Below are positions 14,630 to 44,218 of a stretch of DNA of 64,000 bases, piece by piece. The stretch spans positions 56,337-120,336 of IMG/VR virus record IMGVR_UViG_3300035670_000049, one strand, 5' to 3'. A program made the position numbers and the translations under genes. The stretch comes from a virus. The notes beneath the pieces were generated by a model, which ran no database searches, was not told where the DNA came from, and worked only from the letters and a program-made list of their open reading frames with translations. Each line of letters starts with the position of its first letter. The first letter of the stretch is position 1.

Positions 14630-14698
14630 ATGGAAATTCTTATGTTAGGATTAGCAATGTATCTTGCGTACTTGATTGTTTATAAATCACGACAATAA
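14630..14698 (+). CDS. 22-aa hydrophobic peptide (absent from ORF track)
   Basis: MEILMLGLAMYLAYLIVYKSRQ; GGAGG RBS; abuts upstream stop and downstream terminator. Confidence 0.5.
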   Translation: MEILMLGLAMYLAYLIVYKSRQ

Positions 14699-14733
14699 AA
14701 AATATAGGGCAGCATCTCTGCTGCCCTATTTTT
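14699..14733. terminator. Bidirectional intrinsic terminator between convergent arms
   Basis: ATAGGGCAGCA-TCTC-TGCTGCCCTAT 11-bp stem flanked by A-run and T-run. Confidence 0.9.
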
Positions 14734-14789
14734 ATGCCCAAATTCCTCTTCTTAAAAACTTGGAATTTTCTTCCCCCAAAAAATTTTAG

Positions 14790-15695: not shown

Positions 15696-15885
15696 TTAAT
15701 ACCTCTGGTAAATCGAGCGTCTTTAATTCGCCATTCTGAAGGGACAATTCAAACTCGTTTAAACTGTCTGGTAAAATATCATTCAGTTCACGGTTGGCAA
15801 GTAGTCGATACTTTAGACGTGTAATGGTGCGAATAATCTCAGAGCGCTCTGCCCTTGCCATATCAATTTCAGACTTCTTCTGCAT
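15670..15885 (-). CDS. Hypothetical protein
   Basis: ORF in operon. Confidence 0.5.
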   Translation of the reverse strand: MQKKSEIDMARAERSEIIRTITRLKYRLLANRELNDILPDSLNEFELSLQNGELKTLDLPEVLNVINTKDN

Positions 15886-16105
15886 GTATAACCCTTTCTA
15901 TCTCACTTAATTTTGCACTAAGGTTTTTAATGAGTTCCCTATCCCGTTTAATAGCCTTCCTAAATCTGTAGGTAGATTGGGTAATATAAACCTTACAGAT
16001 TTTACACTGTCTATTAGAGGCTTGGCTATTTGGGAGTGTTAAATCGTGTCCTCTCTTACAAACTACAGCCTTTACAAACTGTCCCTTTAAATTACGAGTC
16101 TGCAA
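15869..16105 (-). CDS. Small Zn-finger protein (CKRGH...CKIC)
   Basis: CKRGH..N..R.CKIC motif. Confidence 0.55.
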   Translation of the reverse strand: MQTRNLKGQFVKAVVCKRGHDLTLPNSQASNRQCKICKVYITQSTYRFRKAIKRDRELIKNLSAKLSEIERVIHAEEV

Positions 16106-16116
16106 GGATCACCTTC

Positions 16117-16332
16117 CTAGTATCTACGGCTATATTCATTGTCCATAATTGAATCTAACGACGTATTATCAAACTCCCTATTTACTCTGCGCCGCTCTCG
16201 CTGCGCCTCATTCTTTAATGCACGAACCCAAGGCTTCTTATCAATAATATCTTCCTTGTATTCTCCGTAGTGATGCTTACAAAATTCCAGTGAGCCACTT
16301 GTTGGACGCTCACAAATAATGCACCGAGCCAT
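16117..16332 (-). CDS. Small Zn-finger protein
   Basis: CIIC...CKHH. Confidence 0.6.
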   Translation of the reverse strand: MARCIICERPTSGSLEFCKHHYGEYKEDIIDKKPWVRALKNEAQRERRRVNREFDNTSLDSIMDNEYSRRY

Positions 16333-16335
16333 AAA

Positions 16336-16944
16336 TTAATCCACCATTTCCTTAAATTCTAAATTACCCCATTGACTAGCCATTGCTTCCGCAATTCCCT
16401 TGTACGTTCGTGAACGTTCCTTCCATCGATCAGGACTAGGTGAAGCAAAATGTACACGGGGAGTACGACCATTAACAACATTTGTTGGCTGTAACAGGGG
16501 GAGATTCTTAAGCCACAATCCTGTACCTTTAACTTCCCCATGCCCAAATTGCCAAGGTTGAATAATTTGAGTTGCTTTACTACCAATAATCTCAGTGGCG
16601 TACCTATGCATGATAGGATTTTCTACCGCGATATGCGGAATATTCGCATGGAGTAAATTAGAAAAAAATCTAGCAGCAATCTCCATATGATGCCAACGTT
16701 CAGCATCAGGTACCTTTCCCTTGCCCCCGTACAGCCACCGTACACCGCTGTTTGCAAGGTAGGTGCATGGAGGATGGGCAACCATCAGGTCCCACCCATC
16801 ATTAATAATGTCTAGGATATTTCCTACGTAGTGAGGACCGGGAACCTCTGTCTCTAGTAAATCGCACGATAAAGCATCATGTCCTTGTCTAATGAAAGCA
16901 TCCCTTACTGTACCTGAAAATTCACATGCAACCAGTACTCTCAT
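16336..16944 (-). CDS. Compact C5-cytosine DNA methyltransferase-like protein
   Basis: VLVACEFSG (variant motif I), HPPC (motif IV), ENP (motif VI). Confidence 0.8.
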   Translation of the reverse strand: MRVLVACEFSGTVRDAFIRQGHDALSCDLLETEVPGPHYVGNILDIINDGWDLMVAHPPCTYLANSGVRWLYGGKGKVPDAERWHHMEIAARFFSNLLHANIPHIAVENPIMHRYATEIIGSKATQIIQPWQFGHGEVKGTGLWLKNLPLLQPTNVVNGRTPRVHFASPSPDRWKERSRTYKGIAEAMASQWGNLEFKEMVD

Positions 16945-17141
16945 ATCTTCCTTATCTCAAAGCCCCCATCCTTTAAAGCATCCATAATATCTGACGCCTC
17001 AAATAAATGTACCTTAACCATACATCCCGGCATGTTACAATAGGCGTGTAATACCTCTGCTATAATTTGTTGCACAGTCTTTTCGATATGTGTCGGTGGT
17101 TCAACCACCTTCCTAGGTCTGCCTCTCATCCTAATCTCCAC
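16941..17141 (-). CDS. Hypothetical protein (likely start 17129)
   Basis: GGAG RBS; MRGRPRK N-terminus. Confidence 0.55.
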   Translation of the reverse strand: MEIRMRGRPRKVVEPPTHIEKTVQQIIAEVLHAYCNMPGCMVKVHLFEASDIMDALKDGGFEIRKI

Positions 17142-17211
17142 CGTCAGGTATAAGTTTGTATAAAGTAAGAAATACTAAGGTAAGTAGAATTAGCAGTAAT
17201 ACTTCCACCAT
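17131..17211 (-). CDS. 26-aa single-TM peptide (absent from ORF track)
   Basis: MVEVLLLILLTLVFLTLYKLIPDGGD; TGATG overlap with upstream stop. Confidence 0.55.
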   Translation of the reverse strand: MVEVLLLILLTLVFLTLYKLIPDGGD

Positions 17212-17684
17212 CAAATCCTTTCCATAATCTGTTGATACTTATCTATCTCGTCATCGTTAAGGATATAGGGATATGGCCTACCAATCTGCTTTGCAGCCAT
17301 TTTAAATATCCTGCTATCACTGTACTCAAACCCTAGAAACTTAGCAATTTTTGCGTAAGCAGATTCTAGTCTCCTAGAAATGGTACGCTGATCTACGTAG
17401 TACCCTTCATACTCTTGGATCATCTTCGATATATCTCTTCGGGATAATCTTCCATCCATCATAACGTATGAGAGCATCTGTACTTCTTGCTTGGACAATT
17501 CTTTTCTAGCATAAAGAATAGATATTGCTCGTTCAATATCCATCTTGGCCGTTAAGTCTACGTTGATCATAGGGTCTGGATCATAGTCTCGTATGTAGTT
17601 TAAGCGGCCTCCCTTGTAGGCACTGTAATTACTAATCCCTTCTACAATCAGGCGTGTTAAATGGGCTGACTTTTTCCTCGGCAT
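17211..17684 (-). CDS. Sigma-70 region-4-like HTH transcription factor
   Basis: DIERAI..L...LSKQE..L....G.LSRRDISK...TISRRLESAYAKIAKFLG. Confidence 0.65.
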   Translation of the reverse strand: MPRKKSAHLTRLIVEGISNYSAYKGGRLNYIRDYDPDPMINVDLTAKMDIERAISILYARKELSKQEVQMLSYVMMDGRLSRRDISKMIQEYEGYYVDQRTISRRLESAYAKIAKFLGFEYSDSRIFKMAAKQIGRPYPYILNDDEIDKYQQIMERI

Positions 17685-17720
17685 ATAACTCTAACTCCTT
17701 TTATTTTAGGGGCCAGAGTT

Positions 17721-17750
17721 ATTATATAGTTAATGACCTTACTGTGTCAA
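17721..17750 (-). promoter_or_regulatory. Sigma70-type promoter for the sigma-like gene
   Basis: TTGACA-18 bp-TATAAT. Confidence 0.8.
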
Positions 17751-18263
17751 GTTTTCAACCAAAGAATCTACAGCCTTCCTTGTTCCCTGTCTTGTATCGT
17801 TATAAATAGAGTAGTCCACCTTATAGGCAGTTAAATCGGCACCAAAATACTCATTAATAAGTACCGTCCCCACCCCTGAGCCAGCCAATGCTTTAGAAAT
17901 ATGTCTTTGCTTAGAGTCTGGAGTATCAATTCGAACAATGACAAAGCCTAGTTGCTGTAAGTATTTTACCTCAGTAATATACCGGGCATCCTCTACAATA
18001 ATATTCGGCTTGATGTTCTCAGTTGCAAGGCGCTTCTCTAGGAAGTGTACCCACGTCTGATTATCTATCTCGTAAAGAGCATCGTAAATCTTCCTGCGTT
18101 TCTCCCAAGGCACACGGCTAAACTTCTCACGGTAATACAATGCACGGTAAAGACGTGTAACCCCATCAGATAGGGGCATCCTCTTGAATTTATATTTATC
18201 TCGTAGGTACACCGCAACCATTCTTTTTGAGGTAGCATTCTTACCTACTAAAGCTATCTTCAT
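17739..18263 (-). CDS. dNMP-kinase-like protein with degenerate P-loop
   Basis: IALVGKNATSKR in place of GxxxxGKT; IIVEDARY..E motif retained. Confidence 0.7.
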   Translation of the reverse strand: MKIALVGKNATSKRMVAVYLRDKYKFKRMPLSDGVTRLYRALYYREKFSRVPWEKRRKIYDALYEIDNQTWVHFLEKRLATENIKPNIIVEDARYITEVKYLQQLGFVIVRIDTPDSKQRHISKALAGSGVGTVLINEYFGADLTAYKVDYSIYNDTRQGTRKAVDSLVENLTQ

Positions 18264-18829
18264 AGGTTAGATAACCCCTCCATCAAACTATCAAGCGCAA
18301 TTAAATCTGAGTAGTCGGTCGATCTGATCATGCTGTGTGACCGTATCTGTCCCCATGTTGTCTCGGTAGGATGGCTCTGACGGGCGGTAGGCACGTTCGG
18401 ATAGAGGGTTTCCACCCGCTGCGCTCTCACGTCCTCGTCACAATAAACCTGAATAAGTAAAAAGCCATTGCTTGAAAGTAATTCAGCCTCTCTTGGTAGT
18501 CTTAGATCATCAATGACTACCCTTCGGAAAGGATACTGCTTTTTAATTGTTGCCAATGTATACTTAGTGAATACATCGTCATCAAATGAACGGAGTTTGT
18601 CCCCTAATTCTTGGACGATCCTACGGTTATCTCCGTCCTTACCTGTGACTCCGTATAACTCGTATGCGATAGCCTTTAACTTATCGGCTAGCGATACCTT
18701 TACAAATCCATAATTCATTATCAGGTAGTCAGCGCACTTGGTTTTACCGGAACACATAGGACCGAAGAAAGCAATGCGCTCACCCGCAGGAACCCTATCG
18801 AGAGTTGTTATCTTCCACACGCCATTCAT
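18260..18829 (-). CDS. Deoxynucleoside monophosphate kinase (start 18829 or 18820)
   Basis: IAFFGPMCSGKT P-loop, SLADKLK, VVIDDLR..E. Confidence 0.82.
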   Translation of the reverse strand: MNGVWKITTLDRVPAGERIAFFGPMCSGKTKCADYLIMNYGFVKVSLADKLKAIAYELYGVTGKDGDNRRIVQELGDKLRSFDDDVFTKYTLATIKKQYPFRRVVIDDLRLPREAELLSSNGFLLIQVYCDEDVRAQRVETLYPNVPTARQSHPTETTWGQIRSHSMIRSTDYSDLIALDSLMEGLSNL

Positions 18830-19043
18830 CCTTAATTGGTTTTTGGAGGCACTTCTCGTCCCACTCTTCTTGGATCGCATCTTGTAGCCTTTTTTCTGCG
18901 GTTTCAAACCAACGGGCAACTTCTTCAAATCCATAGTACCTTGCTTGTCTAATTGCTACAGGTAGATATTCAAGGGAAGAAACTCCTAACTGTGTACCAA
19001 GGTCTGGAATACAGTCACCAAAATTCTCATATATCTTATTCAT
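18795..19043 (-). CDS. Hypothetical protein
   Basis: ORF between deaminase and kinase. Confidence 0.5.
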   Translation of the reverse strand: MNKIYENFGDCIPDLGTQLGVSSLEYLPVAIRQARYYGFEEVARWFETAEKRLQDAIQEEWDEKCLQKPIKDEWRVEDNNSR

Positions 19044-19545
19044 AGTGCGGTCCCAATTCGCCTTCTCTGTACTCTATGATATCGTATATACTAATGGGCT
19101 CTATCTGCCCCTCATCATTCTTCATGTATACGTATGTATACCCTGCATATTTAATCATGCGGGCACACACTAGGCACGGATAAACATTACGTCCTACTAG
19201 TTCTTGATCGTCCTTGTATCCTGCAAGAATAAAAGCAACGCCCTTCTTGGGAGCATCTATTAATGCTGCTTGTTCAGCATGTACTTCAGCACCTAACTCT
19301 GTACGAGAGCCATGTACTACTCCATAACGCTCTCGTATACAGGCACCTTCACAAGCCTTTGTAACCCTTGCATTGGTTGCAGATACTAACGTAGGAAAAT
19401 CATCGTAAGCAATGACAGCACCATACTGTCTACGCACACAAGGAGACTCATTCGCTGCCTTCTGTGCAATCTTGTAATAAGGTTCTATTCTATTAATCGG
19501 AATCGGCCCCCTTAGAATGTTGTCCGCTGCGCTTCTTGCGCTCAT
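19036..19545 (-). CDS. dCMP deaminase
   Basis: SPCVRRQYGAVI, HAEQAA, PCLVCARMI. Confidence 0.88.
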   Translation of the reverse strand: MSARSAADNILRGPIPINRIEPYYKIAQKAANESPCVRRQYGAVIAYDDFPTLVSATNARVTKACEGACIRERYGVVHGSRTELGAEVHAEQAALIDAPKKGVAFILAGYKDDQELVGRNVYPCLVCARMIKYAGYTYVYMKNDEGQIEPISIYDIIEYREGELGPHYE

Positions 19546-27929: not shown

Positions 27930-28742
27930 TTATAATGCGACGATTTCGTCGGCTTTAGTAGATATTTGTGTAGACAAAGTTTTAATTTCAATCGCCTTAT
28001 CCTTAGCCTGTGATAACTTATTATTTGCTACCAAAGCTTCAGCAATAGCAGCATTTCTTTGGTTTTCTAGTTCAGTTATTTGCTGCTCTAAAAGATTAAG
28101 GGTATCTTGTATAGCCATCGTACTTCCTCTTAGTTGTTGAATTAATATTGGTTGCCATCCAGGGAATCCACTTGTATCTAACTTATATGGTCGCCAACAA
28201 TATGGTTTCAATCTTCCCGATATTCGATTATGATCTATAATTGTTTCTGTTACGGGAATTATATTACCCAAAGCTACTGCTGTAGTATTTTCTCGTATCT
28301 GTATGCCTACGTAACGCATCAGATCAATACTTCCAGATAGCAGAATAGTTTGTAACCAGCAAGAAGCATCCTTTACTGCTTGTGTTACAACACCATCATT
28401 AGGTCCACCATCTTCATGTTCTATACTAACAGTATAGTAATTAGGATTGATTACTGTGCCATTCTCGGTCTTCTTTATTAGAGTCCATCCACCGGAAGGA
28501 TCATAGTTGCCATTGCCCCAAGCACTATCTGATAGATCAACATACTGACTAATTCTTACAGGCCCACCGGCTGTACGGTATCCAATACCAAAGTGAGCAG
28601 ATACATCCCTATCTGGATTAGCAAATGTTGCATCTGTTCCCGGTAGATACCCGACCATTCGGTGGTTTACAATTGCAATAGGTTGGTAGCCATTTCTCCC
28701 CGTCCACTTATTGGGCGAGGGTTTAAATGTTATTTGATACAT
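27930..28742 (-). CDS. N-acetylmuramoyl-L-alanine amidase (Amidase_2) endolysin with C-terminal coiled coil
   Basis: IVNHRM, VSAHFGIG, QYV..SDSAWGNG, VSIEHE. Confidence 0.88.
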   Translation of the reverse strand: MYQITFKPSPNKWTGRNGYQPIAIVNHRMVGYLPGTDATFANPDRDVSAHFGIGYRTAGGPVRISQYVDLSDSAWGNGNYDPSGGWTLIKKTENGTVINPNYYTVSIEHEDGGPNDGVVTQAVKDASCWLQTILLSGSIDLMRYVGIQIRENTTAVALGNIIPVTETIIDHNRISGRLKPYCWRPYKLDTSGFPGWQPILIQQLRGSTMAIQDTLNLLEQQITELENQRNAAIAEALVANNKLSQAKDKAIEIKTLSTQISTKADEIVAL

Positions 28743-29954
28743 CTAGTATGCCTCATGAGTGTTTAAAGTTTTAGGAAGAGTGTGCGTAATACTACGTATA
28801 ATTGCATCAAATTGTTTAGCAATCGTATCCCAATTAAATTTATCTTGAGTGATATAATTATACGCATCCGCAGTTAGTTTTAAACGAAGGTCGTGGCTAT
28901 TGTATATCGTGTTAAGTTTTACTACAAGATCATCTACATCAGATACTCCACCCCACGTATTTATCCCCGAGACATTAAGTATCCACGCAGATGTTTTAAC
29001 CGTTAAACCTCCATGACCTTCTACCAGTTCTCGTAAGCAGGAGTGGTCTGAGACAATCTGTGGGCACCCTACGGCCATTGATTCCGCCACGGGTAGTCCA
29101 AACCCATCTCCAAGAGAGATGAGTGCATTCACATCAAAAGAATTGTAAATCATATTGAGCATATAGGTAGGAACACCTTCAGGTAAATTTAACCCTTCCG
29201 TTAGAATTAACTTATCCTTAAGATTGAATTGCCTAGAGAGGTCTAGGATATCAAACCCAACATCCTGTAACGCTGTATGAATATACAACTTAGCGTTGGG
29301 CTTATCCTTTGAGAATTCAGAGAATGCTTTCATGAGAATGTCAAATCGTTTTCTATACTGATTTCGTGCTACCATTCCAACAATGAAAGCATCGAGCGGT
29401 AGTCCGAGGGCTTGCCTAGCCTCTTGCTGCGGGATAGGAAAGAAATTTTTTGTATCTACTCCATGATAAATTTGGTGTAGATTCTTCGGACGCTTACCAT
29501 TAGCCTCAGTGATTACGCTTTCAGCATAGTGAGAGTAACAGACCTGTGCATCAAATTTATCCGTCAGCATCTCTGCCCACTGTGGTTTTAGTGGTCCAGC
29601 ATCGATAGGATAATAAGCGATGTACTTTATATAAGCATCATTAAAATCACGGGGTTTATGCTCCAAATATTTTTCTATTACCCAGGGATCATTTAAAAAG
29701 AATATGATATCAGGTCGTATCTTTCTAGCAAGATACCACATCTTAGAGTATCCATATACCAACTCTATTGGCCCCTTGTCGCAGGGCCAAATATCGTAGG
29801 GAAATTCGTTTCTATCATAGGGATCACCGTACATATTTATTCCCATAACATGCACCTCATGCCCCAAGTTTTGAAGCCTTCCCAGTATACTTTTACTTAC
29901 CTGACCGAAACCTGTTGTTACTGTAGGACTGTCCCCTACATAAAAAATTCTCAT
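28743..29954 (-). CDS. GT-B (GT4-like) glycosyltransferase
   Basis: DSP..TGFG N-terminus; ARNQYRKRFD; YNSFDV...GDGFGLPVAESMAVGCPQI. Confidence 0.92.
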   Translation of the reverse strand: MRIFYVGDSPTVTTGFGQVSKSILGRLQNLGHEVHVMGINMYGDPYDRNEFPYDIWPCDKGPIELVYGYSKMWYLARKIRPDIIFFLNDPWVIEKYLEHKPRDFNDAYIKYIAYYPIDAGPLKPQWAEMLTDKFDAQVCYSHYAESVITEANGKRPKNLHQIYHGVDTKNFFPIPQQEARQALGLPLDAFIVGMVARNQYRKRFDILMKAFSEFSKDKPNAKLYIHTALQDVGFDILDLSRQFNLKDKLILTEGLNLPEGVPTYMLNMIYNSFDVNALISLGDGFGLPVAESMAVGCPQIVSDHSCLRELVEGHGGLTVKTSAWILNVSGINTWGGVSDVDDLVVKLNTIYNSHDLRLKLTADAYNYITQDKFNWDTIAKQFDAIIRSITHTLPKTLNTHEAY

Positions 29955-32320: not shown

Positions 32321-33345
32321 TATGCTAACACCCAATCAAATCCGCCATAGAGAATCCAAAATCGAAATGGATCAAACTGGCTCTGCTGTACTTGAAAATC
32401 AAACCCAGATAATTCACTGTAGTGTGTACAAATTTCTGGATAGCCTGTTATCGTAACAGTTGGACAAGGATCATTGGCATCAATGTTGTATTGAACGAAG
32501 TCTGTTACGTGAGCGCCGGTATTAGGGTCCTTATGCCATACTTCAAAGTTATAGTATCCTGCTAGCCCATGTCCAGTTTCATTAATAACCCCATACCCCA
32601 TATATGGAGTAATATCTCCATTTCCTACCGTAATCATCCTAACCATATTGCCCATCTTACATGCAAGAGCCACCCAGCCCCCGCCCATATTCATAGATGT
32701 GTGTAATCCACCATTAGGATAAAATGGATAAGGCTCATCAGGCATACTTACTCCACCACGCATGTAGTGGATATATCCATACCGATCACTCGTTGCACCC
32801 TGTGAAAGTCCTAAGAGGATTCCACCGTAGATTGTATTCGGTGCAGGATAGTGACAGGTAGGAGTAGGGTTAGCGCAATTCTCTGTCTCAAAGTAACGCA
32901 TATAGCAAATCGTGACAGAGTTAGTGACTAAAGGGAGTTGTGTTACAAGAACAATACCATCTCCACTATCTATTTCTGCCCACCTTGAGAGGTCCCATGT
33001 TGTCCCGTTGACATATACTGAAAGAGTACCGGGAAAGTAGGGTTGTGATACTCGTAACTCATGATCACCGGCTTCAACGGTGAAACTCTCACAAGACATA
33101 CGAATATCGCTGCCAGTCATACAGTTAGAACCCGGTGGAGGTTTGTTAAATTCCAAGTCGAGCGAAACCCTCTTTTGGGTCTTAGCGACATTGAAATTCA
33201 TCGAGAATGGAACAACAGGATCAAAGATATCCCTTGTTCTCTCTACTCCCGGTCTGTTTGGTCGGCTTCTCTTTAATGCCCTATCCGCATGGTCACGGGA
33301 TTTGCTGATATATTTACCAACTTCGTTTAAGTTATCTGAGGCCAT
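32320..33345 (-). CDS. Tail-tip/receptor-binding protein, paralogue 1
   Basis: ADRALK...ER.RDIFDP.VP N-terminus; PY.PG...VY.NG beta-sandwich. Confidence 0.72.
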   Translation of the reverse strand: MASDNLNEVGKYISKSRDHADRALKRSRPNRPGVERTRDIFDPVVPFSMNFNVAKTQKRVSLDLEFNKPPPGSNCMTGSDIRMSCESFTVEAGDHELRVSQPYFPGTLSVYVNGTTWDLSRWAEIDSGDGIVLVTQLPLVTNSVTICYMRYFETENCANPTPTCHYPAPNTIYGGILLGLSQGATSDRYGYIHYMRGGVSMPDEPYPFYPNGGLHTSMNMGGGWVALACKMGNMVRMITVGNGDITPYMGYGVINETGHGLAGYYNFEVWHKDPNTGAHVTDFVQYNIDANDPCPTVTITGYPEICTHYSELSGFDFQVQQSQFDPFRFWILYGGFDWVLA

Positions 33346-36300
33346 TGTACACACTCCAATTCATACGTTCTACCAGAACCTGATTCGCTTATCTGTTTTC
33401 GATTGATCCTTAATCTGATATTACCAGACTTTTTTGTCCATAGTATGAAGGAGTCTCCTTGCTCCAAATCAAGCGATGACGCTGTATGTTGTACAGTTAT
33501 ACGCTTCTCTGGCTTATTTCTTCTTTTTAATTCCATGCGGGTCAAGCCAACTAATTGCATATAGTCAGCAATATCCCTAAAATCGTGTTGTCTTGTAATT
33601 GTTCTTTTAAATAGTTTCTTTGTCTTATGATCTTCTACAATCGCAGACATAGGAAGTCCATCAATATCAGAACCATTTGATAGTAACCTTGTTGCTACCT
33701 TCTGTACATCGTTTACAATGTTGTAAGAGACTAACGTGTTTTCACCTTCTCGTAAAGCAATCTCTGTATCTCTACCTAGGCGTGGCTCTAATTTAAATCC
33801 ATCGACATTAGCATCCCATTCAGATTGAATAGCCTCTGCAACAGATTTTATAATCTCAAGATGTGTTTGATCTTGGAACTGTGCTGATAGCCCTATTAAC
33901 TCATGAGCAACTATACTATCCAAGTACACATACTCATAAATTGATACTTGTTTTGCAGTTTTAGGGTTACAAGAACTACATCTCGATACAAATGAACTGG
34001 AACCAGTTTCATACTTATTTGTTGTATATTTTTCTGCCGTACCTGTTCGATAAGAAACAGACATAGTATACTTGTCCCAAGGCAACCCATCTACAAAATA
34101 GTCATTGCTATCGAATAAAACAAACCCCGGAATTTCATGCCCTTTTTTATTGGTATCCAGATTGATAAGCAAACTTCCATCTTCAGGGTCGCCCCCCGGT
34201 ATCATTACATGATTTTCGTTCCCCGGATCATACTCCCCTAAGCCCTCTATATATTTAAATAGCATTAATGTAAGTTTTCCATGTCTTCTTCCCTTGGCAG
34301 AGTAGACAATTACTCTATCTCCTTCAAAACTGAAACTTATACCAACTCCGGGTTTATTCCACTTGTACATGGAACCGCCACTAAAACGCTTATCATAAAT
34401 TTGCTTTACCGCTTGTAAATTGCTGACAGCAATTCTGGTGCTGTCCTCATTATACTCGACCATCGATGCTGACCAGTACCCTTCGATAGAGTCTACTGAG
34501 CAAAAATTATTATCGAGCAGGGTAACTTTAATTTCGTAGATAGTATTTGGATCAAGGATTCCAGACTCGTATGTTATTTCATATACAACTTCAGCAGATA
34601 AACCATCTGGAATTTTATAACTAGCCTCTAAGGTTGACCACGCACTCCACATATTTGCTTCCCATTTACCATCGGTTTGCTCCCATGCAGAGGCACTTCC
34701 CTTTCTTCTAAATTCAATCTTAACGGTTGCTCCGGTTTTCCATGATGGTACAGTGGCATACCACTTAAAAGATTGCCCTCTAAAGTGAACCTTAAAATAA
34801 TCCCCTATCTTCTCAGTATAAGAGTAGGTTCCTCCCCAAGAGAATTCATCCATTCTCCCTTTCCAGCAGTCCACCCAATTTAGAGTGAGGTTGCCCATAG
34901 CAACTCCTCTTGTGATAAGGTACTTGGTTTCTCCTGCTCGACCAGATACGGTGACTGTGCCAGAGGAATCATCCGTCATAATAAGAGGAGTATTTTGATC
35001 GTCAAGCATTGCAAAATCAAATCCATCTGGGTAGCAGTTAGAACAATCTTTCTTAAAGAATTTATGGTAGTCATTGTTCCCTACTCCTGTCCATGAGACA
35101 TTAAATTTTCTAATGAATGTTCCGGGTTCAAACTTCTGGTAGTATATTCCATTCTTATTGACTTTTATTAATTCAGAAGCATCTGGTACACGATAGTACT
35201 CGATTTGCCTATTATTATTATCAATACGTTGTTTAGCCAAAGGTTTTACAGAATTCTTTTCTATAATTTCTTGGAATGCTCCCAATTCTATAATCGAGGC
35301 ATGGCAATCACTTTCAGGCTTTAATTTATCTGTTGGAAAACTCTTAGATACAATTGTACCATCCTTTTTCCTATAGGTCATTAATCCCAACTTTCTTCCA
35401 AAGTTAGAATTATCCCCCGGACGATAATCAGGATCGCATTGATAGTCCCACCCATCATAAGAGGCTAATGTATCGAAACTATTTCCATACCAAGCATGAA
35501 CATCCTTTATATATACAGTTAAATACCGAGCATCGATAGGACCCGCTTGATCCTGATTAGTATGAAAAGTATTATAACCAGTACCAGCATAACCACTGGT
35601 AGTATAGCCTAAATAAAATTCAAAAGGTCTTGCAGCGCCAGTAACAACACGATTTCCTTCTGTAGAGTTTGCACGATAGGTTGCTTCCTCTAATGATCCG
35701 GGCGTTATACCGGGAGGTAAAGGATCAAACTCTTCCCAACTATCAAAGATCGTTGTAAATGCTCCCCAATCCCTATCAAGCACACCACTGTAAACTACAG
35801 GAGTATCTGTAGCAACTTTGATTTCAAATTCATACGTTCGATTGGATGCTCTCTGTGGTCCTCCCCACCAAGGAAACAGTAACCTGATCTTGGAGATTTT
35901 ATAGATATCCCCAAAATCTAATGCAACCGTATCCTGCTCTGTCATGCCTGACCAATATTCACTGGCTGCATACCATGTTCTAGGAGGTTCTATTTTACCA
36001 ATAGGAATATATGCCGATTGCTCATCAATAATAAAATCTTTTGTTCTCTTACTAAGAGCATAAAAGGTTTCATCAGGTAAGATAGTCTTAAAGATTTGTT
36101 CTTCTTGTGGGTTGTCCTCATCCAGTGAAGTTACTAAGACCTTTGTACTCGGAGCCACAGCAATGTTTTCATACCGTAGTTCTTCGATAATAGAATCAAT
36201 ACTAGCATAGAAAAACTTAAGCGTTGTAAAATGATCCGCTAACAAGGCTGACCTTCCAGCCCCCGTAATTTTATATACTCCACTGGAATCATCAATACTT

Positions 36301-36542
36301 GTAATGGGTCCAAAGTTTAACTTCTTATTCGTAGAAGTTTCCCAGACCTCCCAAAGATTCGTAAAACTAGCCTCATCATAGGGACTTAATTTATCTGCTT
36401 TAGGATCATTTTTAGGAATCTCAAAACTGATTCCCTCATCTGAGGAGTTAATAGATTTAAAATACTGCTTGTTTGCAGCATTTTCTAAAATTACTACATC
36501 ACTAGGATTACTAGGATTAACAATTCTAACTTGTAGGGCCAC
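33327..36542 (-). CDS. Tal/hub-like tail protein with inserted discoidin and carbohydrate-binding-like modules
   Basis: Position; SFEIPK.DP N-terminus and EGEN...KVATRL C-terminus; ALDFGDIYKISKIRL discoidin-like insert. Confidence 0.7.
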   Translation of the reverse strand: MALQVRIVNPSNPSDVVILENAANKQYFKSINSSDEGISFEIPKNDPKADKLSPYDEASFTNLWEVWETSTNKKLNFGPITSIDDSSGVYKITGAGRSALLADHFTTLKFFYASIDSIIEELRYENIAVAPSTKVLVTSLDEDNPQEEQIFKTILPDETFYALSKRTKDFIIDEQSAYIPIGKIEPPRTWYAASEYWSGMTEQDTVALDFGDIYKISKIRLLFPWWGGPQRASNRTYEFEIKVATDTPVVYSGVLDRDWGAFTTIFDSWEEFDPLPPGITPGSLEEATYRANSTEGNRVVTGAARPFEFYLGYTTSGYAGTGYNTFHTNQDQAGPIDARYLTVYIKDVHAWYGNSFDTLASYDGWDYQCDPDYRPGDNSNFGRKLGLMTYRKKDGTIVSKSFPTDKLKPESDCHASIIELGAFQEIIEKNSVKPLAKQRIDNNNRQIEYYRVPDASELIKVNKNGIYYQKFEPGTFIRKFNVSWTGVGNNDYHKFFKKDCSNCYPDGFDFAMLDDQNTPLIMTDDSSGTVTVSGRAGETKYLITRGVAMGNLTLNWVDCWKGRMDEFSWGGTYSYTEKIGDYFKVHFRGQSFKWYATVPSWKTGATVKIEFRRKGSASAWEQTDGKWEANMWSAWSTLEASYKIPDGLSAEVVYEITYESGILDPNTIYEIKVTLLDNNFCSVDSIEGYWSASMVEYNEDSTRIAVSNLQAVKQIYDKRFSGGSMYKWNKPGVGISFSFEGDRVIVYSAKGRRHGKLTLMLFKYIEGLGEYDPGNENHVMIPGGDPEDGSLLINLDTNKKGHEIPGFVLFDSNDYFVDGLPWDKYTMSVSYRTGTAEKYTTNKYETGSSSFVSRCSSCNPKTAKQVSIYEYVYLDSIVAHELIGLSAQFQDQTHLEIIKSVAEAIQSEWDANVDGFKLEPRLGRDTEIALREGENTLVSYNIVNDVQKVATRLLSNGSDIDGLPMSAIVEDHKTKKLFKRTITRQHDFRDIADYMQLVGLTRMELKRRNKPEKRITVQHTASSLDLEQGDSFILWTKKSGNIRLRINRKQISESGSGRTYELECVQWPQIT

Positions 36543-36560: not shown

Positions 36561-39500
36561 TTATATATCCCATCTATTTCTATAAGAAATGATAGTTGAA
36601 GTTGCTCCGGTAATATTAAAGTAGGTTTTACCCGGCCCAACATAGATAGCGTAATCAAGATTTTTCATAAGATTATTTTTATTTACCCCATTTATCGTTG
36701 CAGTATAGGATTCAGAATTAATAACTAGGTTGGAAACAGTTCCAGATACACTAATAAATCCAGCAAAATCTCCACTTTCCGTATAACCTGAAACTGTGAT
36801 ATTGGTTCCGGTTAGTAATACAGTAGCAGGAGTCCATGTGCCATCAGTAACAGACCTTGCCCCTGTATTTATAGAGGTTGACCCAGACAGAGTAAAGACC
36901 TGTTCCCCAAATAGCCAAGGCTTAGTATCAAATTCAACTTCATACTCTACAAATTTTGAAGCTTTATTAACATCTGTTTCGAGTTGTATTTTAGTGGGTT
37001 TAACTAGATAATAGTTTGTTAATTGCCCCACATATAGTTTTCTATAGGAATTATCTCGGCTACTTCGTAGAACTGTTGCAGCCATCTGTGCCTTTTGTTT
37101 TAATTCTTGATGACTATTACCTACAATCTTTAGCCTTAGTGAGATAACTTTATTTCTTATCCCTAGATTTTCCATAGGAGCCCCATCTTTATAAGGACTT
37201 GAATACTCAATTAAATTCGCAGAGCTTATATATGACTCATTTTGAGCATACCCCGGTAAGTCGTAGTTGTTATACTTAACAACATACTTGTACATAGGAA
37301 CAAACGCCATTGCATTTGCATAGCCTCTTGGATCATGTATTCGTGCCTGTGCCTGAGCCGTCTTCAGGGTGCCGATGAGTGCCCCTGCTTGTCCAAACTT
37401 ACTATAGGTTTCCTTTACCTTGATAAAGGCTATGGGGGTAGTAAAGACGAGGCTGTTTGTATACTTGATCGTTGCTTGGGCTTGAACATACATACGATAC
37501 TGTCGAAGAATATCTGCCCTTGCTTGTCCAGAGTTATAAGTAAATTTTTCAATCATGGCTCTTGACTGTGCGTATACCTGATAGATTTCTCCGTACATTC
37601 TTGCCTGAGCCTGAGCAAGTTGTGTGCCTTTAAGTATCCATGCTTGTGCTAAACCAAACCTGTTATAATCATATCCGATCACTTTGGCTACAGATTGGGC
37701 AGTAAACTGCATCTGGTTAATGGTAGTCATTGCCAAAGCAAAGGCATTCTGATCGTATACATGAATGGCTGCTTGCGCATACCCTATTTTCTTCCAAGGC
37801 TTGATCGTCTTACCCTGTGCATTGGCTAGAGCAAATTCTCCACGCTTAATATATGCATTAGCGTTTGCATGAGGCTTTCTATCGTTGATGAATGCCATTA
37901 CATAGGCATTCTTCCAAGGCTTTCCTTTGATCAGGGCATTTGCTAATCCATGCCCCATTAGTTTACTGTACTTTGTTACAGAAACTTGGGCTTGTGCATA
38001 TTTTTGGTAGACTTGCTTGACTCTCGCTTGAGCAAGTGCGTGCTTTGGAGAGAAGATAAATGCCATACCTTGTGCAATAGCACTGATACGATCCTTGACC
38101 ATACGGGTCTGTGCTTGTGCAAACTTGTTATAGGTTGTCCAGATATCTGCTTGTGCCTGTGCGTGGCACTGGCGTCTGGTAATAAATGCCATTGCATTAG
38201 CCCAGCGATATCTTGTACCAACAAGCATCCACGGAGCAGGGTTACTATCTGTTAACCAACTTTCATTTACTTCGCTTGGTCGTCTGAAGTGGTTATACGT
38301 AACATAGGCTTCACCGCCACCCTCTGACCACTGCCAGATAATCTTATACTCTTGTCCCTGTGTAAGATTAATTGTTCCTGTCCATGATCCACCGGCTGAA
38401 CCACCGGGCCAAGCACCGACAGTACCGACTATTTCATTTGCTGAGTTATAGATACTGATACGAGAAGCGTCATCACTCTGTAGGTGGAAATACCATGCTC
38501 CAGTCTCATCAGCGACGAATCTACCGATAGCCGTTACACCAAAGTAACTTGTTCTTGTTCCTGTACCGGGTGGCTTGTTACTACCGTCATCATACTTGAT
38601 CATGTTTGGGGTACTTATTCCCCAAATATTTTCTATCGTCCCTACTTCATGATCGTACCCACTACCTTGGAAGAATAGATAGGCTAAGAATCCATCTTGT
38701 GGAATGACTGCTGCTTGTGCTTGTGAGCATACATTAAATCGAGCCAGTAAGGCGGCTGCTTGTCCAAATGCATACTGAAATAATATTATTTGGGCTTGAA
38801 CTTGTGCGCTTTGACTTATAATAGCAAGAGGTGAGCTAAGATACGCTTCTGCTTGTGCAAAAACAAATGTAATGTTGCCTTGAATAGAGGCTTGTGCTTG
38901 AGCAAAGGCTGGATTTCTAAGAATATATGTCTGAGCCTGTGCTAGTTGTATTCCCGTTACAACGGAGTAGTGCCATCGAATTTGTTCATCTGTTAATTGT
39001 GTATTGTAGATAGCAACTTCATCAATAACGCCAGAAAAGGCTTGACTAGTATTAAACCCACTACTACCAATAGCAACGGTTGAAAAGTTAGAATCGTTTC
39101 TAACCATCGTGGCTGTAAGTTTAAGGGAGCCATCTACATATAATTTACCTGTTGTTCCGCTCCAAGTAAGTACTAAATGGTGTCGAAGATCGTCTGAAAT
39201 AGACGGTCCTTGCCGCATTGTAGCATTATCATAATCATAGAAAGAGATATTTCCATTATTTATAAATAATCCCCACTCGGTGGATTTTACTACAATTGCT
39301 TGTGTACCACTTGATGAGGCTGTTTGTACCCATGCTTCAACAGAACCTGTAGATATATTACTATATGGAATTGAACTACTTGTTGCACCAACAACCAAAG
39401 CAGTCGTTCCTGCAAAAGATAATGCAGTATTGCTTTGATCTACAAGCCCTTGTGTTGATGAAGGAGCAACAAATGCAGCAGCAACATAAGCATTATAATC

Positions 39501-42344
39501 TTGTGTTCCGCCATAACTTTTAATTTCTGGAGCGCCCAAAAAGGCTTCAATTTCTTGGAAACCGGGGCTATACCCTGCTTGTGTTGGAGGAGCATTAACT
39601 TTAAACCAAGTAATATTGTCTTTACGAATAAACTTTGCAACAGTTGGACCCCAACCATTAGGAATACCTTGAACAGTTACTTGAGAACCATCACTAAAGT
39701 CAATAGTAAAACTTCCAGAACCCCAATAATCCGCGCTATATCCACCACCACCATCACTTCTATCCAACATGGCAATGGTATCAAGAGATTGCGGTTGACT
39801 CCATTCTACTTTCCAGTAGTTAGAAGTATTTGCTGGCTCTGCTGCGCTGGTTCCATAATCACCATCTGCTGCCCCACTTCCACCGACTGTTCTCATTGTG
39901 TAGGTGGCTGTTCCACCAATGGGGAATCTAACAAGATTTGTGAATGAAAGATTAGATTCATCTAAGCGGTAGTAGGCTAATGGAGAATCTGCGATTATTG
40001 TTTGATAATAAGAATCTTCTACAATATTAAGTGCCATCGCATTAGCACTAACGGTATATCTTGCAAGTCGTGCGGCTGCTTGAGCAACCTGAGATATATT
40101 TATTAGAATAATTTGCGCTTCGGCTTGGGCTGATTGGCTTACGAGTGTTAGATCAGAATCAATAAGAGCCTCTGCTTGTGCGTATCCTGCCTGTTTTCCT
40201 ATGTGGGCCATTGCTTGTGCAAAAACACCGGGAACACCAGCAAGGTAATGATTTAAAATTTGTGTTCCAGTTAAAGAGGTATTATATAAAGCAGCGTTGC
40301 TTACGCTTCCAGTTAGATAACCATAATTACTTCCACTATCGCCCATTGTGTATGGACTATAAAGAAGAGATTCTGGTACTGTTAATCCTGTTCTTACTGC
40401 AACACCATCTAAATAGAGAACAGGTTGCTTATTTGTAACAACTACCGCAATATGATGCCAACCAGAAAGAGTTGCACTATAAGAAAGGATTGCACAAAGA
40501 GTGCTGTTTCCATGAGCAGCAACAACAATACCATTGAATCCTACGGAAAGTCCAAGTCCCCTGTTTGAACCCATCTGTATTGGATAGAAAACAAAACTCA
40601 TTGCATTGGCATTATAACCAGCGTATGTACCGCTAGTTGCTTCAGTCGGTAAAACTCCACCAGAGCCTATATTTTTCCCCGGCTTAACCCACGCTTCAAC
40701 TGTAAAGTTATTTGTTACTTGTGAAGTAAAAGTATTTATTGTAGCAACGGTATTGTTATTGCTTATTCCTTGCGCCCGATCATAGGCTGGCATAGGAACA
40801 TTGACAGCCCGTGTCCAACCCCCTACAACGTTATAGGCTGATCCATAAGAATATCCCTGTGGTCCTACGTATGCTCGTACCTTTTGATCGCTATCAGATA
40901 ACGGCCAATATCCGTAAGGATTATCTGCTACAACAGCGTTTCTATATGGTTGCTCAGGAGTAATAAATGCTTGTGCTTGTGCCCATTGAGGATCTTTAAC
41001 TTTATATACGACACGGATAAAGGACTTAGAAACATGGACTGGAGTATTTGTAACTGAGTATAGAACACGCGCAAAGGAATGGCTCGCATAAACACCAGCA
41101 ATCTCTGCTCCTGCCTGTGCGTATTGTTGCCATCCGCCCATTATTCCTAACGTATAGTGTTCTAAAACTTCCGCAGGGGTTAGTGCAACCTTATAAACAG
41201 CAACTTCGTCAATTTTTCCTTGGAAGAAATAAGATGCGGCACTGTATGCTCCAATAACTTTAACGGCAGCGTTATCTGGTTGTGTCGCTGTATTATGATT
41301 AGTTACAAGTGGTACAGATACTCCATTTACATAAATCTTATGCGTTGTTCCTGTACCAGATCGTGTATAGACAATATGATTCCACTGGTTTAGAGTAATA
41401 GCATTATCATTGGTTTGTGCCAACCAAGTACCGGGAACGCTAACAGCAACTCTATTTGTACCAGCAGACCCGCCTAGTTCTAAATGAAATCCAGAACTTA
41501 CACCACTAGCTCCCCAAATAAAATCTCTGTTAGCAGCACTATAACTAGCAGCAGTTGGGTACACCCATGCTTCAATCGTTACATTGTTAGCATAGGGAAA
41601 TACTGTAGAGGCAGTTACCGCACGCTGAGTCGCACCGTCAAAAGATACAGAGTAATCAGAATCTCCATATATTGCTCCACTTGATGCCGAACCGACCCCA
41701 TTTGCAAGTGTAGCATGATTTTGATAAATTGAAGAGTCATATACAGTAGTTCCTATATCCCCTAAGCGATAATATGCTAGAAGATTAGAGCCATGTCGAT
41801 GCACATACCACGGATAAGAACCAACAACTTTAATTAGAGCCCCAGATTGAGCAATATTATAAACTTCATTTACGCCACCAATTACCCACGTATTTGCTTG
41901 TACTTGAGCAAATCTCCATTGAGTAACAATTTTGGCTTGAGCCTGTGCAAATACAATAGCAGTATTCTCAGGTAGAAATATATGAATAGTACCCTCTCCG
42001 GTAAGAGAGGGTCTATAAGTACTGCCGTTCCAAGAATAAGCAGCATACCAGCCAGTGTTAAATGGGCCTAATGTATAAGTAGTATTTGCTTGAGGACTGG
42101 CCTGATATCGGTTACTATTATCCTGTCCATTAGTTGCTCCTGTAATTTGGCTAACACCTATATTACCGCCATCACTTGGTGGTGTAACTACACGTATAAT
42201 TACGTATTGTCCAGAAAGCAAATAAAACTTATCTGTTAATTTATTAACAGTGGTACTCATTACGGCTGATACGCCGGGGAAAGAAAGAGCAAGTTGGTAT
42301 CTAACGCTTGCTTCGGCTTGGGCAAATGCCTCCCTAGTTGTCAT
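36561..42344 (-). CDS. Giant tail fibre/adhesin: AQAQA-repeat shaft, three LamG-like, one discoidin-like and one PA14-like domain, C-terminal Dit-like domain
   Basis: YYRLGD/YWPLSD/YYRLDE LamG starts, FQGKIDEVAVY ends; F.LQSDDASR PA14 motif; last ~245 aa align with 43466-44218. Confidence 0.85.
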   Translation of the reverse strand: MTTREAFAQAEASVRYQLALSFPGVSAVMSTTVNKLTDKFYLLSGQYVIIRVVTPPSDGGNIGVSQITGATNGQDNSNRYQASPQANTTYTLGPFNTGWYAAYSWNGSTYRPSLTGEGTIHIFLPENTAIVFAQAQAKIVTQWRFAQVQANTWVIGGVNEVYNIAQSGALIKVVGSYPWYVHRHGSNLLAYYRLGDIGTTVYDSSIYQNHATLANGVGSASSGAIYGDSDYSVSFDGATQRAVTASTVFPYANNVTIEAWVYPTAASYSAANRDFIWGASGVSSGFHLELGGSAGTNRVAVSVPGTWLAQTNDNAITLNQWNHIVYTRSGTGTTHKIYVNGVSVPLVTNHNTATQPDNAAVKVIGAYSAASYFFQGKIDEVAVYKVALTPAEVLEHYTLGIMGGWQQYAQAGAEIAGVYASHSFARVLYSVTNTPVHVSKSFIRVVYKVKDPQWAQAQAFITPEQPYRNAVVADNPYGYWPLSDSDQKVRAYVGPQGYSYGSAYNVVGGWTRAVNVPMPAYDRAQGISNNNTVATINTFTSQVTNNFTVEAWVKPGKNIGSGGVLPTEATSGTYAGYNANAMSFVFYPIQMGSNRGLGLSVGFNGIVVAAHGNSTLCAILSYSATLSGWHHIAVVVTNKQPVLYLDGVAVRTGLTVPESLLYSPYTMGDSGSNYGYLTGSVSNAALYNTSLTGTQILNHYLAGVPGVFAQAMAHIGKQAGYAQAEALIDSDLTLVSQSAQAEAQIILINISQVAQAAARLARYTVSANAMALNIVEDSYYQTIIADSPLAYYRLDESNLSFTNLVRFPIGGTATYTMRTVGGSGAADGDYGTSAAEPANTSNYWKVEWSQPQSLDTIAMLDRSDGGGGYSADYWGSGSFTIDFSDGSQVTVQGIPNGWGPTVAKFIRKDNITWFKVNAPPTQAGYSPGFQEIEAFLGAPEIKSYGGTQDYNAYVAAAFVAPSSTQGLVDQSNTALSFAGTTALVVGATSSSIPYSNISTGSVEAWVQTASSSGTQAIVVKSTEWGLFINNGNISFYDYDNATMRQGPSISDDLRHHLVLTWSGTTGKLYVDGSLKLTATMVRNDSNFSTVAIGSSGFNTSQAFSGVIDEVAIYNTQLTDEQIRWHYSVVTGIQLAQAQTYILRNPAFAQAQASIQGNITFVFAQAEAYLSSPLAIISQSAQVQAQIILFQYAFGQAAALLARFNVCSQAQAAVIPQDGFLAYLFFQGSGYDHEVGTIENIWGISTPNMIKYDDGSNKPPGTGTRTSYFGVTAIGRFVADETGAWYFHLQSDDASRISIYNSANEIVGTVGAWPGGSAGGSWTGTINLTQGQEYKIIWQWSEGGGEAYVTYNHFRRPSEVNESWLTDSNPAPWMLVGTRYRWANAMAFITRRQCHAQAQADIWTTYNKFAQAQTRMVKDRISAIAQGMAFIFSPKHALAQARVKQVYQKYAQAQVSVTKYSKLMGHGLANALIKGKPWKNAYVMAFINDRKPHANANAYIKRGEFALANAQGKTIKPWKKIGYAQAAIHVYDQNAFALAMTTINQMQFTAQSVAKVIGYDYNRFGLAQAWILKGTQLAQAQARMYGEIYQVYAQSRAMIEKFTYNSGQARADILRQYRMYVQAQATIKYTNSLVFTTPIAFIKVKETYSKFGQAGALIGTLKTAQAQARIHDPRGYANAMAFVPMYKYVVKYNNYDLPGYAQNESYISSANLIEYSSPYKDGAPMENLGIRNKVISLRLKIVGNSHQELKQKAQMAATVLRSSRDNSYRKLYVGQLTNYYLVKPTKIQLETDVNKASKFVEYEVEFDTKPWLFGEQVFTLSGSTSINTGARSVTDGTWTPATVLLTGTNITVSGYTESGDFAGFISVSGTVSNLVINSESYTATINGVNKNNLMKNLDYAIYVGPGKTYFNITGATSTIISYRNRWDI

Positions 42345-42395
42345 TCATCCAAGCCTCCTTACATAGTATTGTAATGCGTATTGTATTACGATTGA

Positions 42396-43451
42396 TTAAA
42401 CTTCTACTTTGATTCCAAGTTCTATAGCGTTAACTTCTTGCGGAGTCCATCCGCTTGTCGTTACTGGATTTACTGTTTCTGGATAGAAATAATAGTTAAA
42501 TGTATTAGTAAGATTTGCATCGCTTCCAGATCGTTCGTATGTTACCCCATCTGTACGTTGTACGACACGAATTGTTTTTGTACTAGCGTCTACTTTTCTT
42601 ACGCGATTTGCGTGTATAACTCCATGAATAGCAGTAATATTTGAAGCAGGAGTCAGCAAGGGGTTGTATAAAAATGTATCCATAACGCCAGATACTGTGG
42701 TATAAAGGTAATCGGCATCGTTTACTGTTATACCATCATCTACCATTTCATAGTGAGATGTACCAGTAAGAGGAGTTAATCCAGTATGAAATCCATCTCC
42801 ACTAGGAACAATATCATAGACACGAATATCTCCTAGATAATTCTGGGTTCCTCCAGTATTATCCATAATATATACATCATCAAAGTAAGTATTCCAGTTA
42901 TTATCTGTATCTGAAGCATTTAAAGAAAAACCATAAGTATACTGATTAGCCGATAAACAAGTATCTATATTATAACCTGAAGCAATAACAATACCATTTT
43001 GCCTAAATTCAAAATTGCCGTTAGTATTATTAAATCGTATTTTTCCATCTATCCAATGCCATGTATTTAAAGTAAGGGAAGCCGGTTTAGCAACCGCATA
43101 ATTAGTTGTTACTGTACTTAGGCTTTTAAGTGCAAAAACAAGGGCTCCATATGTAGTCATATACAGCCCACAGTGCCAAGTTGATCCATCATGAAAACTA
43201 ATTAAGTTAGAAATTCTGTTAGAGTAGACCCAACCCGCTGTTTGAAAAGCAAAACCAAAGATAATTTCTTCGTAGTTAGCAAAAAAATCTTTACGGTAGT
43301 AAGTTGTTCCACCGTCTTGCGAAGCAAATCGTACTCCTGCACCACTATTTGCTACTCTTGAATAGGATGGGTCTATAGTATAACTTCCTGCGTGCATTGC
43401 TACAGAACCAGATTCAAATCCCTCAGCCCAAATAATATCTCCTGCTGCCAT
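42396..43451 (-). CDS. Minor tail structural protein (concanavalin-like)
   Basis: Beta-rich; WHWIDGKI, YFDDVYI; position between Dit and fibre. Confidence 0.7.
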   Translation of the reverse strand: MAAGDIIWAEGFESGSVAMHAGSYTIDPSYSRVANSGAGVRFASQDGGTTYYRKDFFANYEEIIFGFAFQTAGWVYSNRISNLISFHDGSTWHCGLYMTTYGALVFALKSLSTVTTNYAVAKPASLTLNTWHWIDGKIRFNNTNGNFEFRQNGIVIASGYNIDTCLSANQYTYGFSLNASDTDNNWNTYFDDVYIMDNTGGTQNYLGDIRVYDIVPSGDGFHTGLTPLTGTSHYEMVDDGITVNDADYLYTTVSGVMDTFLYNPLLTPASNITAIHGVIHANRVRKVDASTKTIRVVQRTDGVTYERSGSDANLTNTFNYYFYPETVNPVTTSGWTPQEVNAIELGIKVEV

Positions 43452-43465
43452 TTATCTCACCACCT

Positions 43466-44218
43466 CTATAAGTACCATCTATCTTGCCAAGAAATGGTAC
43501 AAGATGATGCACCAGTTATTGCAAAGTAGGTTGTTTCGGGGCCGACATACATTCGATAATCTGCCCATTTCATTAAATTATTTTTATTTACCCCACCGAT
43601 TGTAGCCGTAAAGTCATCCGAGTTTATTACCATATTGGTGACTGCTCCTGAGATGCTGATGAATCCTGCGAAGTCTCCTGTCCCCGTATACCCGGAAATA
43701 GTAACATTCGTACCAGTTACATCTATGGTTGTTGGAGTCCAGCCGCCATTGTCAATGGTCCTTCCGGTTGTCCCCGTATTGATCGTTGTTGTTCCATTGA
43801 TCGAGTGAACTGTTTCTCCGATTAACCAAGGCTTACACTTAAAATCTACCTGATATTCAAGTGTACGAACAGATTCATCCGCTGTCTTTTCCATTCGTAT
43901 TGCTTCTGTTTGCGCCTCGTAGTATCGATCTATGTATTGTACGTATAGTGGAGCAAATCCATCCCTTTTACTACGAACCATTGTTGCGGCCTTTTGAACC
44001 TCGTTTTTACAGGCAAGGTAATTTGCTTCCCATACTTTGAGCGTAAGAGTTAGAGGTTTATTCTGCAATCCTACGTACTCAGATTCTGAACCATCCGAAT
44101 AGGGGGCATAATGTTCGGCTATTTGAGCCTGTGAGATAAAATCTTCTTTTTGTACATATCCGGGTAAAGTATAGCCGTTATACTTAACTAGATACGCTGG
44201 TGTAGGTCCCTCTCCCAT
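43466..44218 (-). CDS. Distal tail protein (Dit-like)
   Basis: Immediately after tape measure; ~250 aa; DF.CKPW motif. Confidence 0.75.
   Translation of the reverse strand: MGEGPTPAYLVKYNGYTLPGYVQKEDFISQAQIAEHYAPYSDGSESEYVGLQNKPLTLTLKVWEANYLACKNEVQKAATMVRSKRDGFAPLYVQYIDRYYEAQTEAIRMEKTADESVRTLEYQVDFKCKPWLIGETVHSINGTTTINTGTTGRTIDNGGWTPTTIDVTGTNVTISGYTGTGDFAGFISISGAVTNMVINSDDFTATIGGVNKNNLMKWADYRMYVGPETTYFAITGASSCTISWQDRWYL

Follow-up and report, generated by a model that had tools for sequence, protein, structure and literature searches.

The genome of the uncultured, long-tailed phage IMGVR_UViG_3300035670_000049 encodes two paralogous distal tail (Dit) proteins, one of which is free while the other forms the C-terminal end of a protein of 1927 amino acids. 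These genes, here called Dit-A and Dit-B, were studied in a window of 64,000 nucleotides that corresponds to bases 56337-120336 of this 120,336-bp IMG/VR record, a genome that bears direct terminal repeats. They lie in a late operon on the minus strand, where the order of transcription is tape measure protein (TMP), Dit-A, an open reading frame (ORF) of 351 amino acids, Dit-B, and ORFs of 1071, 344 and 602 amino acids. We consider it reasonably likely that Dit-B is a second, genuine subunit of a Dit ring and that it covalently roots an arm which is exchangeable, studded with lectin domains and employed to adsorb reversibly to glycans of the host.

BLASTP alignment of Dit-B with Dit-A gave 123 identities in 245 columns (50%), with 71% positives and 3 gaps (E 3e-75), and paired residues 1683-1925 of Dit-B (window positions 36570-37298) with residues 5-248 of Dit-A. 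The likeness of the two proteins extends from end to end and is far beyond chance. Exactly two copies of the domain are present in the 120,336-bp genome. An initial annotation of the window had described such a duplicated domain, one copy free and one at the end of a giant ORF; its coordinates and its assignment to the minus strand are right, the motifs that it quoted are found in the translations, and the alignment bears it out. Its description of the 1,900-residue protein as a fibre calls for a correction: the N-terminal part of 1,680 residues consists of repeat blocks broken by globular lectin-like domains and is at most a putative fibre.

Dit, around which the tip of every siphophage tail is organized, forms a hexameric ring that closes the tail tube. 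An AlphaFold2 model of Dit-A built with a 30-sequence alignment (A1) had a pLDDT of 87 and a pTM of 0.73; single-sequence prediction gave a pLDDT of 37. When the model was compared with the PDB using Foldseek, the first-ranked structure was the SPP1 Dit (gp19.1, 2x8k), which matched over the whole length (258 columns, E 7.6e-13, TM scores 0.69/0.71). Ranks 2-12 were occupied by other Dit chains, including those of the monocin tip, NF5, mycobacteriophage Douge, 80alpha, TP901-1 and p2, and the matches obtained in BFVD were to named distal tail proteins. The model has the two domains of a Dit, an N-terminal tube-protein/Hcp-like beta-sandwich with a helix and hairpin and a C-terminal galectin-like domain. 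The proposal that the duplicated domain is Dit-like in structure is thus upheld for Dit-A, and the Dit-B domain, at 50% identity to it, can be expected to have the same fold. Dit-A directly follows the TMP gene and therefore occupies the canonical position of a Dit gene; Dit-B is two genes further on, directly upstream of a candidate Tal gene. Neither protein reached the Pfam gathering score for Sipho_tail (PF05709) or SPP1_Dit (PF22768), Dit-A having no Pfam match and Dit-B scoring 17.9 bits to SPP1_Dit (cut-off 25). Among 30 family members, five match SPP1_Dit (best E 3e-5) and one matches Sipho_tail (E 3.4e-10) in Pfam. Searches of PHROGs and NCBIfam gave nothing useful for Dit-A, Dit-B, its arm, the Tal candidate or the downstream proteins, and a PDB profile search with alignment A1 returned only noise, because repeat columns dominated the profile. 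On the strength of the model, Dit-A and Dit-B are a divergent Dit subfamily.

An AAGGAGG site lies 9 nt ahead of the Dit-B ATG; the three true starts here carry GGGGG, GAGGTGGTGA and AAGGAGG sites. No Shine-Dalgarno element was found in the DNA before the internal Met1684 of Dit-B. An exhaustive HMMER search of 1.84 billion representatives yielded 125 relatives (family representatives), and in about 90 of these 125 the Dit domain is located at the extreme C-terminus of proteins of 281-3747 amino acids. Where the domain was fully covered, it ends 0-1 residue from the C-terminus in about 80 of 96 representatives. An alignment of the junctions of 58 fused relatives showed that most lack a Met there. 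In some, 4-5 residues separate the end of the last repeat from the conserved Y-L-V-x-Y-N with which the Dit domain begins; in the others, a linker rich in Gly and Pro stands between the two. The recurrence of the C-terminal fusion, together with junctions that have no Met, excludes an assembly artefact and conserved internal initiation, and the variability of the junction argues against a conserved cleavage site. Judged from these sequences, Dit-B is a true translational fusion that has been conserved, as the initial annotation had supposed when it saw no ribosome-binding site before the internal Met.

The same data bear on two other explanations. The Dit domain might be split from the arm after translation by autoproteolysis, or be made by internal initiation, so that a free second Dit and an unattached arm result. 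Met1684 does lie one residue into the aligned region, and many phage fibres end in a chaperone domain that cleaves itself off. However, the junction is not conserved and has neither the initiation signal nor, in most relatives, the Met that would be expected; Pfam scans revealed no S74-type chaperone domain (Peptidase_S74) in Dit-B and no other protease family; and the C-terminal domain has instead the predicted fold of Dit, which is a structural ring subunit and not a known chaperone. We regard separation of the two parts as very improbable. The second explanation, that a lost stop codon or a chimeric contig has joined a fibre gene to a Dit gene, has only the rarity of the architecture in its favor, and its probability is next to nil given that assemblies from JGI, ENA, Logan and NCBI show the same fusion in about 90 independent protein clusters.

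All of the lectin-type domains that Pfam recognizes in Dit-B are N-terminal of residue 1378. Between these domains, and throughout the 305 residues that precede the Dit domain, are blocks of a 14-residue repeat with the consensus (Y/F)-A-Q-A-Q-A-x-I-K-x-T-Y-x-(V/A). The arm of Dit-B has about 40 copies, and about 149 are found in four giant proteins of the genome, with a spacing of exactly 14 residues in 74 of the 145 spacings in these proteins. No Pfam or PHROGs family matched the repeat, and the ESM Atlas held no usable match for the repeat region. The alternating Ala face of the repeat suggests that it may adopt a very tightly packed beta structure. The three other giant AQAQA-repeat proteins (944, 2064 and 1685 amino acids) are encoded outside the window, at genome positions 5260-19345; none has a Dit domain or a match in Pfam or PHROGs. 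Two of these three share the C-terminal motif D-I-[ST]-N-x-[GN]-W-x-[GR]-V-V-I. Giant repeat proteins are also present in related complete genomes, and in a relative with a single Dit, described below. Dit-B therefore looks like a general fibre-building module of the clade fused to a duplicated Dit, and the AQAQA repeat appears to be the general fibre-building block of the clade.

We examined 16 related loci on contigs from JGI, Logan, NCBI and IMG/VR. The typical gene order is TMP, free Dit, an optional protein of ~270-360 amino acids, fused Dit, and a conserved protein of ~1000 amino acids that is a probable Tal. Both a free Dit directly after the TMP gene and a C-terminally fused Dit downstream were found in 13 of the 16 loci; in L015 and L019, Dit-A is followed by a giant ORF rich in repeats that is truncated where the contig ends. 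The fusion suspected from a single genome therefore recurs widely, both among the family representatives and in this survey. Locus L021 (IMGVR_UViG_3300037307_000061, 4851-14034) has TMP, one Dit of 276 amino acids and the homologue of the 1071-residue protein, but no second Dit; its Dit (P0085) is the most basal in the tree, and this is probably the ancestral arrangement. In L022 (10774-19914) and some representatives (P0100-P0116), all that remains of the Dit in the fused protein is its ring-forming N-terminal half, which is followed by an unrelated tail of ~140 residues. In L007 (1943-5125), both Dits have N-terminal extensions, of 197 amino acids including repeats on the TMP-adjacent copy and of 330 on the second. 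Orthologs of Dit-A form at least 177 clusters of proteins of ~250 amino acids with 57-69% identity. All homologues are unnamed or labelled only 'hypothetical protein', and no match to Dit-A was obtained by tblastn in 50,697 deposited phage genomes, so that no cultured relative was found. One further contig, L024 (CAZRNW010000044.1, 2158-5595; 12 kb), has a gene for a fused Dit of 1145 amino acids followed by an ORF of 885 amino acids and was binned with a metagenome-assembled genome of an uncultured Flavobacteriaceae, which is a weak hint as to the host.

A maximum-likelihood tree built from 110 domains grouped 78 of the 82 fused ones in one weakly supported clade, with the free ones outside it, and the free/fused label changed 3 times on the tree as opposed to 25 times when labels were shuffled. 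Identities between A and B within a genome are 42-50%, those between A orthologs 46-62%, and those between B orthologs 37-46%. Concerted evolution, or gene conversion between Dit-A and Dit-B, was considered and rejected on these identities within and between genomes, which also indicate that B evolves faster. The pattern fits an old duplication of which both copies have been kept. There are 47 columns conserved in both Dit-A and Dit-B, including columns of the ring domain, so the fused copy appears to be constrained in its structure in the same way as a functional Dit. No residue fixed differently between A and B was found across the aligned paralogues. Soft shifts are strongest at positions 22, 63-70, 101 and 218, and the divergence is lowest in the galectin-like half (Jensen-Shannon divergence ~0.1). 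In contrast to this conserved anchor, the N-terminal part is hypervariable among relatives, and the anchoring by the C-terminus that had been proposed for this protein fits such a distribution.

The lack of fixed differences would also be expected if the two domains were interchangeable in the ring. A and B might then be alternative Dits, with virion rings made of one, of the other or of a random mixture, and the phage population would include particles with and without arms. Against this, both genes belong to one co-oriented late operon, each with a strong ribosome-binding site, and there was no sign of a switch element. Moreover, retention of both copies in 13 of the 16 loci (15 if the two cut-off giant ORFs are included) argues that each is needed. 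We think this alternative improbable.

In the explanation that we prefer, Dit-B would be an 'evolved Dit' in effect, extended at its N-terminus instead of by an insert in the galectin domain. Its C-terminal domain would join the ring level on the tube axis, between the tail tube and the Tal trimer, in one of two ways: a Dit-B hexamer may be stacked on a Dit-A hexamer, in the gene order tube, A, B, Tal, or the two subunits may alternate in an A3B3 ring. Three or six arms would thereby be rooted in the tail tip. Each of them would be a stalk of 14-residue AQAQA repeats that displays LamG, discoidin-like and PA14 modules, and these modules may bind host surface glycans in a first, reversible adsorption. 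Each subunit of Tal contacts two of Dit, using different domains to do so, and alternate positions in the ring are consequently non-equivalent. We infer that the 3+3 or stacked ring is the most plausible class of model. The search for fixed differences did not discriminate between stacked and mixed rings. Counted in favor of a ring subunit are the B proteins that retain only the ring half, e.g. in L022, and the 197-residue N-terminal extension on the Dit-A of L007.

Alternatively, the Dit-B domain could be a peripheral docking module, like BppU-type adaptors, that stays out of the ring on the tube axis and employs contacts of the Dit-Dit type to attach the arm externally to the Dit-A ring, the Tal or the tube. 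The low divergence of the galectin-like half could provide for lateral homotypic contacts, and the Gly/Pro-rich linkers of several members suggest a loosely tethered module. It should be noted, however, that the truncated domains keep the ring-forming N-terminal half (L022, P0100-P0114) and that B conserves all 47 of the columns that are conserved in Dit-A, the ring-domain columns among them. Peripheral docking seems to us unlikely. A more elaborate scheme is that the two paralogues form either an A3B3 ring, as obligate partners, or a pair of distinct stacked rings, and that this is the sole root of a fibre system built from the new AQAQA beta-repeat; the three other giant proteins, which have no recognizable anchor, would co-assemble with the Dit-B arm via the shared repeats to give a C-terminally rooted adhesin apparatus of several proteins that would have no parallel among the siphophage tail tips described so far. 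This scheme we regard as doubtful.

Several observations weigh against Dit-B as a ring subunit with a glycan-binding arm. The absence of fixed A/B differences is unexpected if the copies occupy different environments, as they would in either ring arrangement. Glycan binding by the arm is predicted from the types of its Pfam domains, and ring incorporation and stoichiometry are likewise predictions. The identification of the 1071-residue protein as Tal, the expected partner of the ring, is probable and draws on its position and on weak matches. In 13 loci the gene immediately after Dit-B encodes a homologue (35-58% identity), and in L021 a homologue comes immediately after the single Dit. Of four homologues scanned with Pfam, one matches Prophage_tail (E 3e-4) and all four match F5_F8_type_C_2; one homologue bears LysM; and the leads from the ESM Atlas were 'tail protein' and Prophage_tail clusters. 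The protein of the window itself had no direct family match, the Pfam test for Prophage_tail being negative on its own genome, nothing significant emerged from a PDB profile search, and hhalign found no similarity to SPP1 gp21.

SPP1 gp19.1 (2X8K) and the Dits of TP901-1, p2, 80alpha, NF5, Douge and monocin have the two-domain fold of Dit-A over its whole length, and Dit-A, like them, comes directly after the TMP gene. It differs from SPP1-type Dits in having only 8-15% identity to them and in being one of two paralogues, the other of which ends a 1927-residue protein. A second comparison is with the evolved Dits (evoDits), each of which is, as far as is known, the only Dit of its phage. The evoDits of Lactobacillus, Lactococcus and Streptococcus siphophages have modules inserted in the C-terminal galectin-like domain (PMC7291167, PMC9128512). 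Like them, Dit-B is a Dit polypeptide with predicted modules of carbohydrate-binding type, a variable decoration on a conserved ring scaffold. In Dit-B, however, nothing is inserted within the galectin-like domain, which is uninterrupted (3 gaps in 245 columns); the extension is N-terminal and ranges from 30 to ~3500 residues in the family, and a plain Dit is kept beside it.

For a stacked double ring there is a precedent in lactococcal phage p2, where a second Dit ring of the same protein has been reported, and in the unassigned density of phage 1358; two Dit rings at the tail tip have been described or proposed. Both rings of p2 come from one gene product, whereas here there are two paralogues (50% identity), one of them with an arm. 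In ceduoviruses (c2 / bIL67), the adjacent paralogues L15-L16 and ORF35-ORF36 are predicted by AlphaFold to alternate, 3+3, in a Dit-like ring that is placed under a trimeric hub resembling Tal (PMC12474359). These pairs bear carbohydrate-binding modules and resemble the present one in that two paralogues, here encoded in one operon, may both be ring proteins. They differ in that the ceduovirus proteins are Hcp-like, belong to an unrelated lineage and have their modules in mid-chain, with no giant N-terminal arm and no AQAQA repeats; their arrangement too is a prediction. The initial annotation had set the arrangement apart from N-terminally anchored fibres and small carbohydrate-binding inserts; as a claim of uniqueness this must be qualified in view of p2 and the predicted ceduovirus ring. 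Nevertheless, in none of the three (evolved Dits, p2 double ring and ceduovirus ring) does a plain Dit persist beside a second one with a giant arm at its N-terminus.

Known adhesins are attached to Dit either as inserts in the galectin domain or through separate adaptors that are bound by their N-termini. A clade of uncultured phages of ~105-128 kb that keeps a plain Dit and a second Dit with an exchangeable N-terminal arm would thus have an undescribed attachment of host-binding arms. The usual polarity of the anchor would be reversed, with a conserved C-terminal anchor and a variable N-terminal tip. With respect to host range, the conserved Dit anchor may be regarded as the boundary of a cassette at which arms are swapped. 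The system also offers a natural test case for a six-fold ring with two types of subunit under a three-fold Tal, and it has brought to light a 14-residue repeat that has no family in Pfam or PHROGs. The features of the tail operon and of the Dit-B protein are listed in Table 1.

Table 1. Features of the tail module and of the Dit-B protein. Positions refer to the window, except in the last row.
Feature	Position	Strand	Basis
Tape measure protein (TMP), 1662 aa	44234..49222	-	Pfam PhageMin_Tail E 4e-12; phrog_4211 tape measure
Dit-A, free distal tail protein, 250 aa	43466..44218	-	Directly after TMP; AlphaFold2 and Foldseek
Conserved 351-aa protein	42396..43451	-	phrog_2448 (function unknown) E 1e-28
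Dit-B, 1927 aa (N-terminal adhesin arm, C-terminal Dit domain)	36561..42344	-	Single open frame
Laminin_G_3 domain 1, residues 236-393	41166..41639	-	Pfam E 6.9e-27
Laminin_G_3 domain 2, residues 531-696	40257..40754	-	Pfam E 3.7e-14
DUF7402 / discoidin-like domain (borderline), residues 838-935	39540..39833	-	Pfam DUF7402 26.9 bits (cut-off 27); F5_F8_type_C weak
Laminin_G_3 domain 3, residues 997-1122	38979..39356	-	Pfam E 7.7e-22
PA14 domain, residues 1252-1346	38307..38591	-	Pfam 28.3 bits (cut-off 24) when scanned alone
~22 tandem 14-residue AQAQA-type repeats, residues 1378-1682	37299..38213	-	Motif spacing; lead straight into Dit domain
C-terminal Dit domain of Dit-B, residues 1683-1927	36564..37298	-	Family HMM positions 3-249, E 4.5e-101
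Conserved 1071-aa protein, probable Tal / tail-tip hub	33327..36542	-	Position; weak matches of homologues
Candidate receptor-binding protein, 344 aa	32320..33354	-	N-terminal ~150 aa common to next gene
Candidate receptor-binding protein, 602 aa	30527..32335	-	Same N-terminal ~150-aa module as 344-aa protein
Giant repeat ORFs of locus L010 (positions in L010)	1258-4092, 4093-10287, 10289-15346	-	Built largely of AQAQA repeat

The 351-residue protein encoded between the two Dits matched nothing in Pfam, NCBIfam or the PDB. Orthologs were found at the same place in L003, L012, L016, L019, L014, L004 and L018, and in L017, L020, L022 and the P0079 contig the two Dit genes are not separated by such a protein. 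A search of the genome for a sheath gene was negative, and the tail is therefore probably non-contractile.

The proteins of 344 and 602 amino acids have an N-terminal module of ~150 residues in common and differ in their C-termini, and BLASTP revealed the same relationship in relatives. They are likely to be receptor-binding proteins that share an adaptor and can be exchanged for one another. The tail module is followed, just downstream at window positions 27930-29954, by genes for a GT4-family glycosyltransferase (403 amino acids) and an Amidase_2 lysin (270 amino acids). A GT4 glycosyltransferase is found at the equivalent place in the relatives L004, L007, L008 and the P0079 contig.

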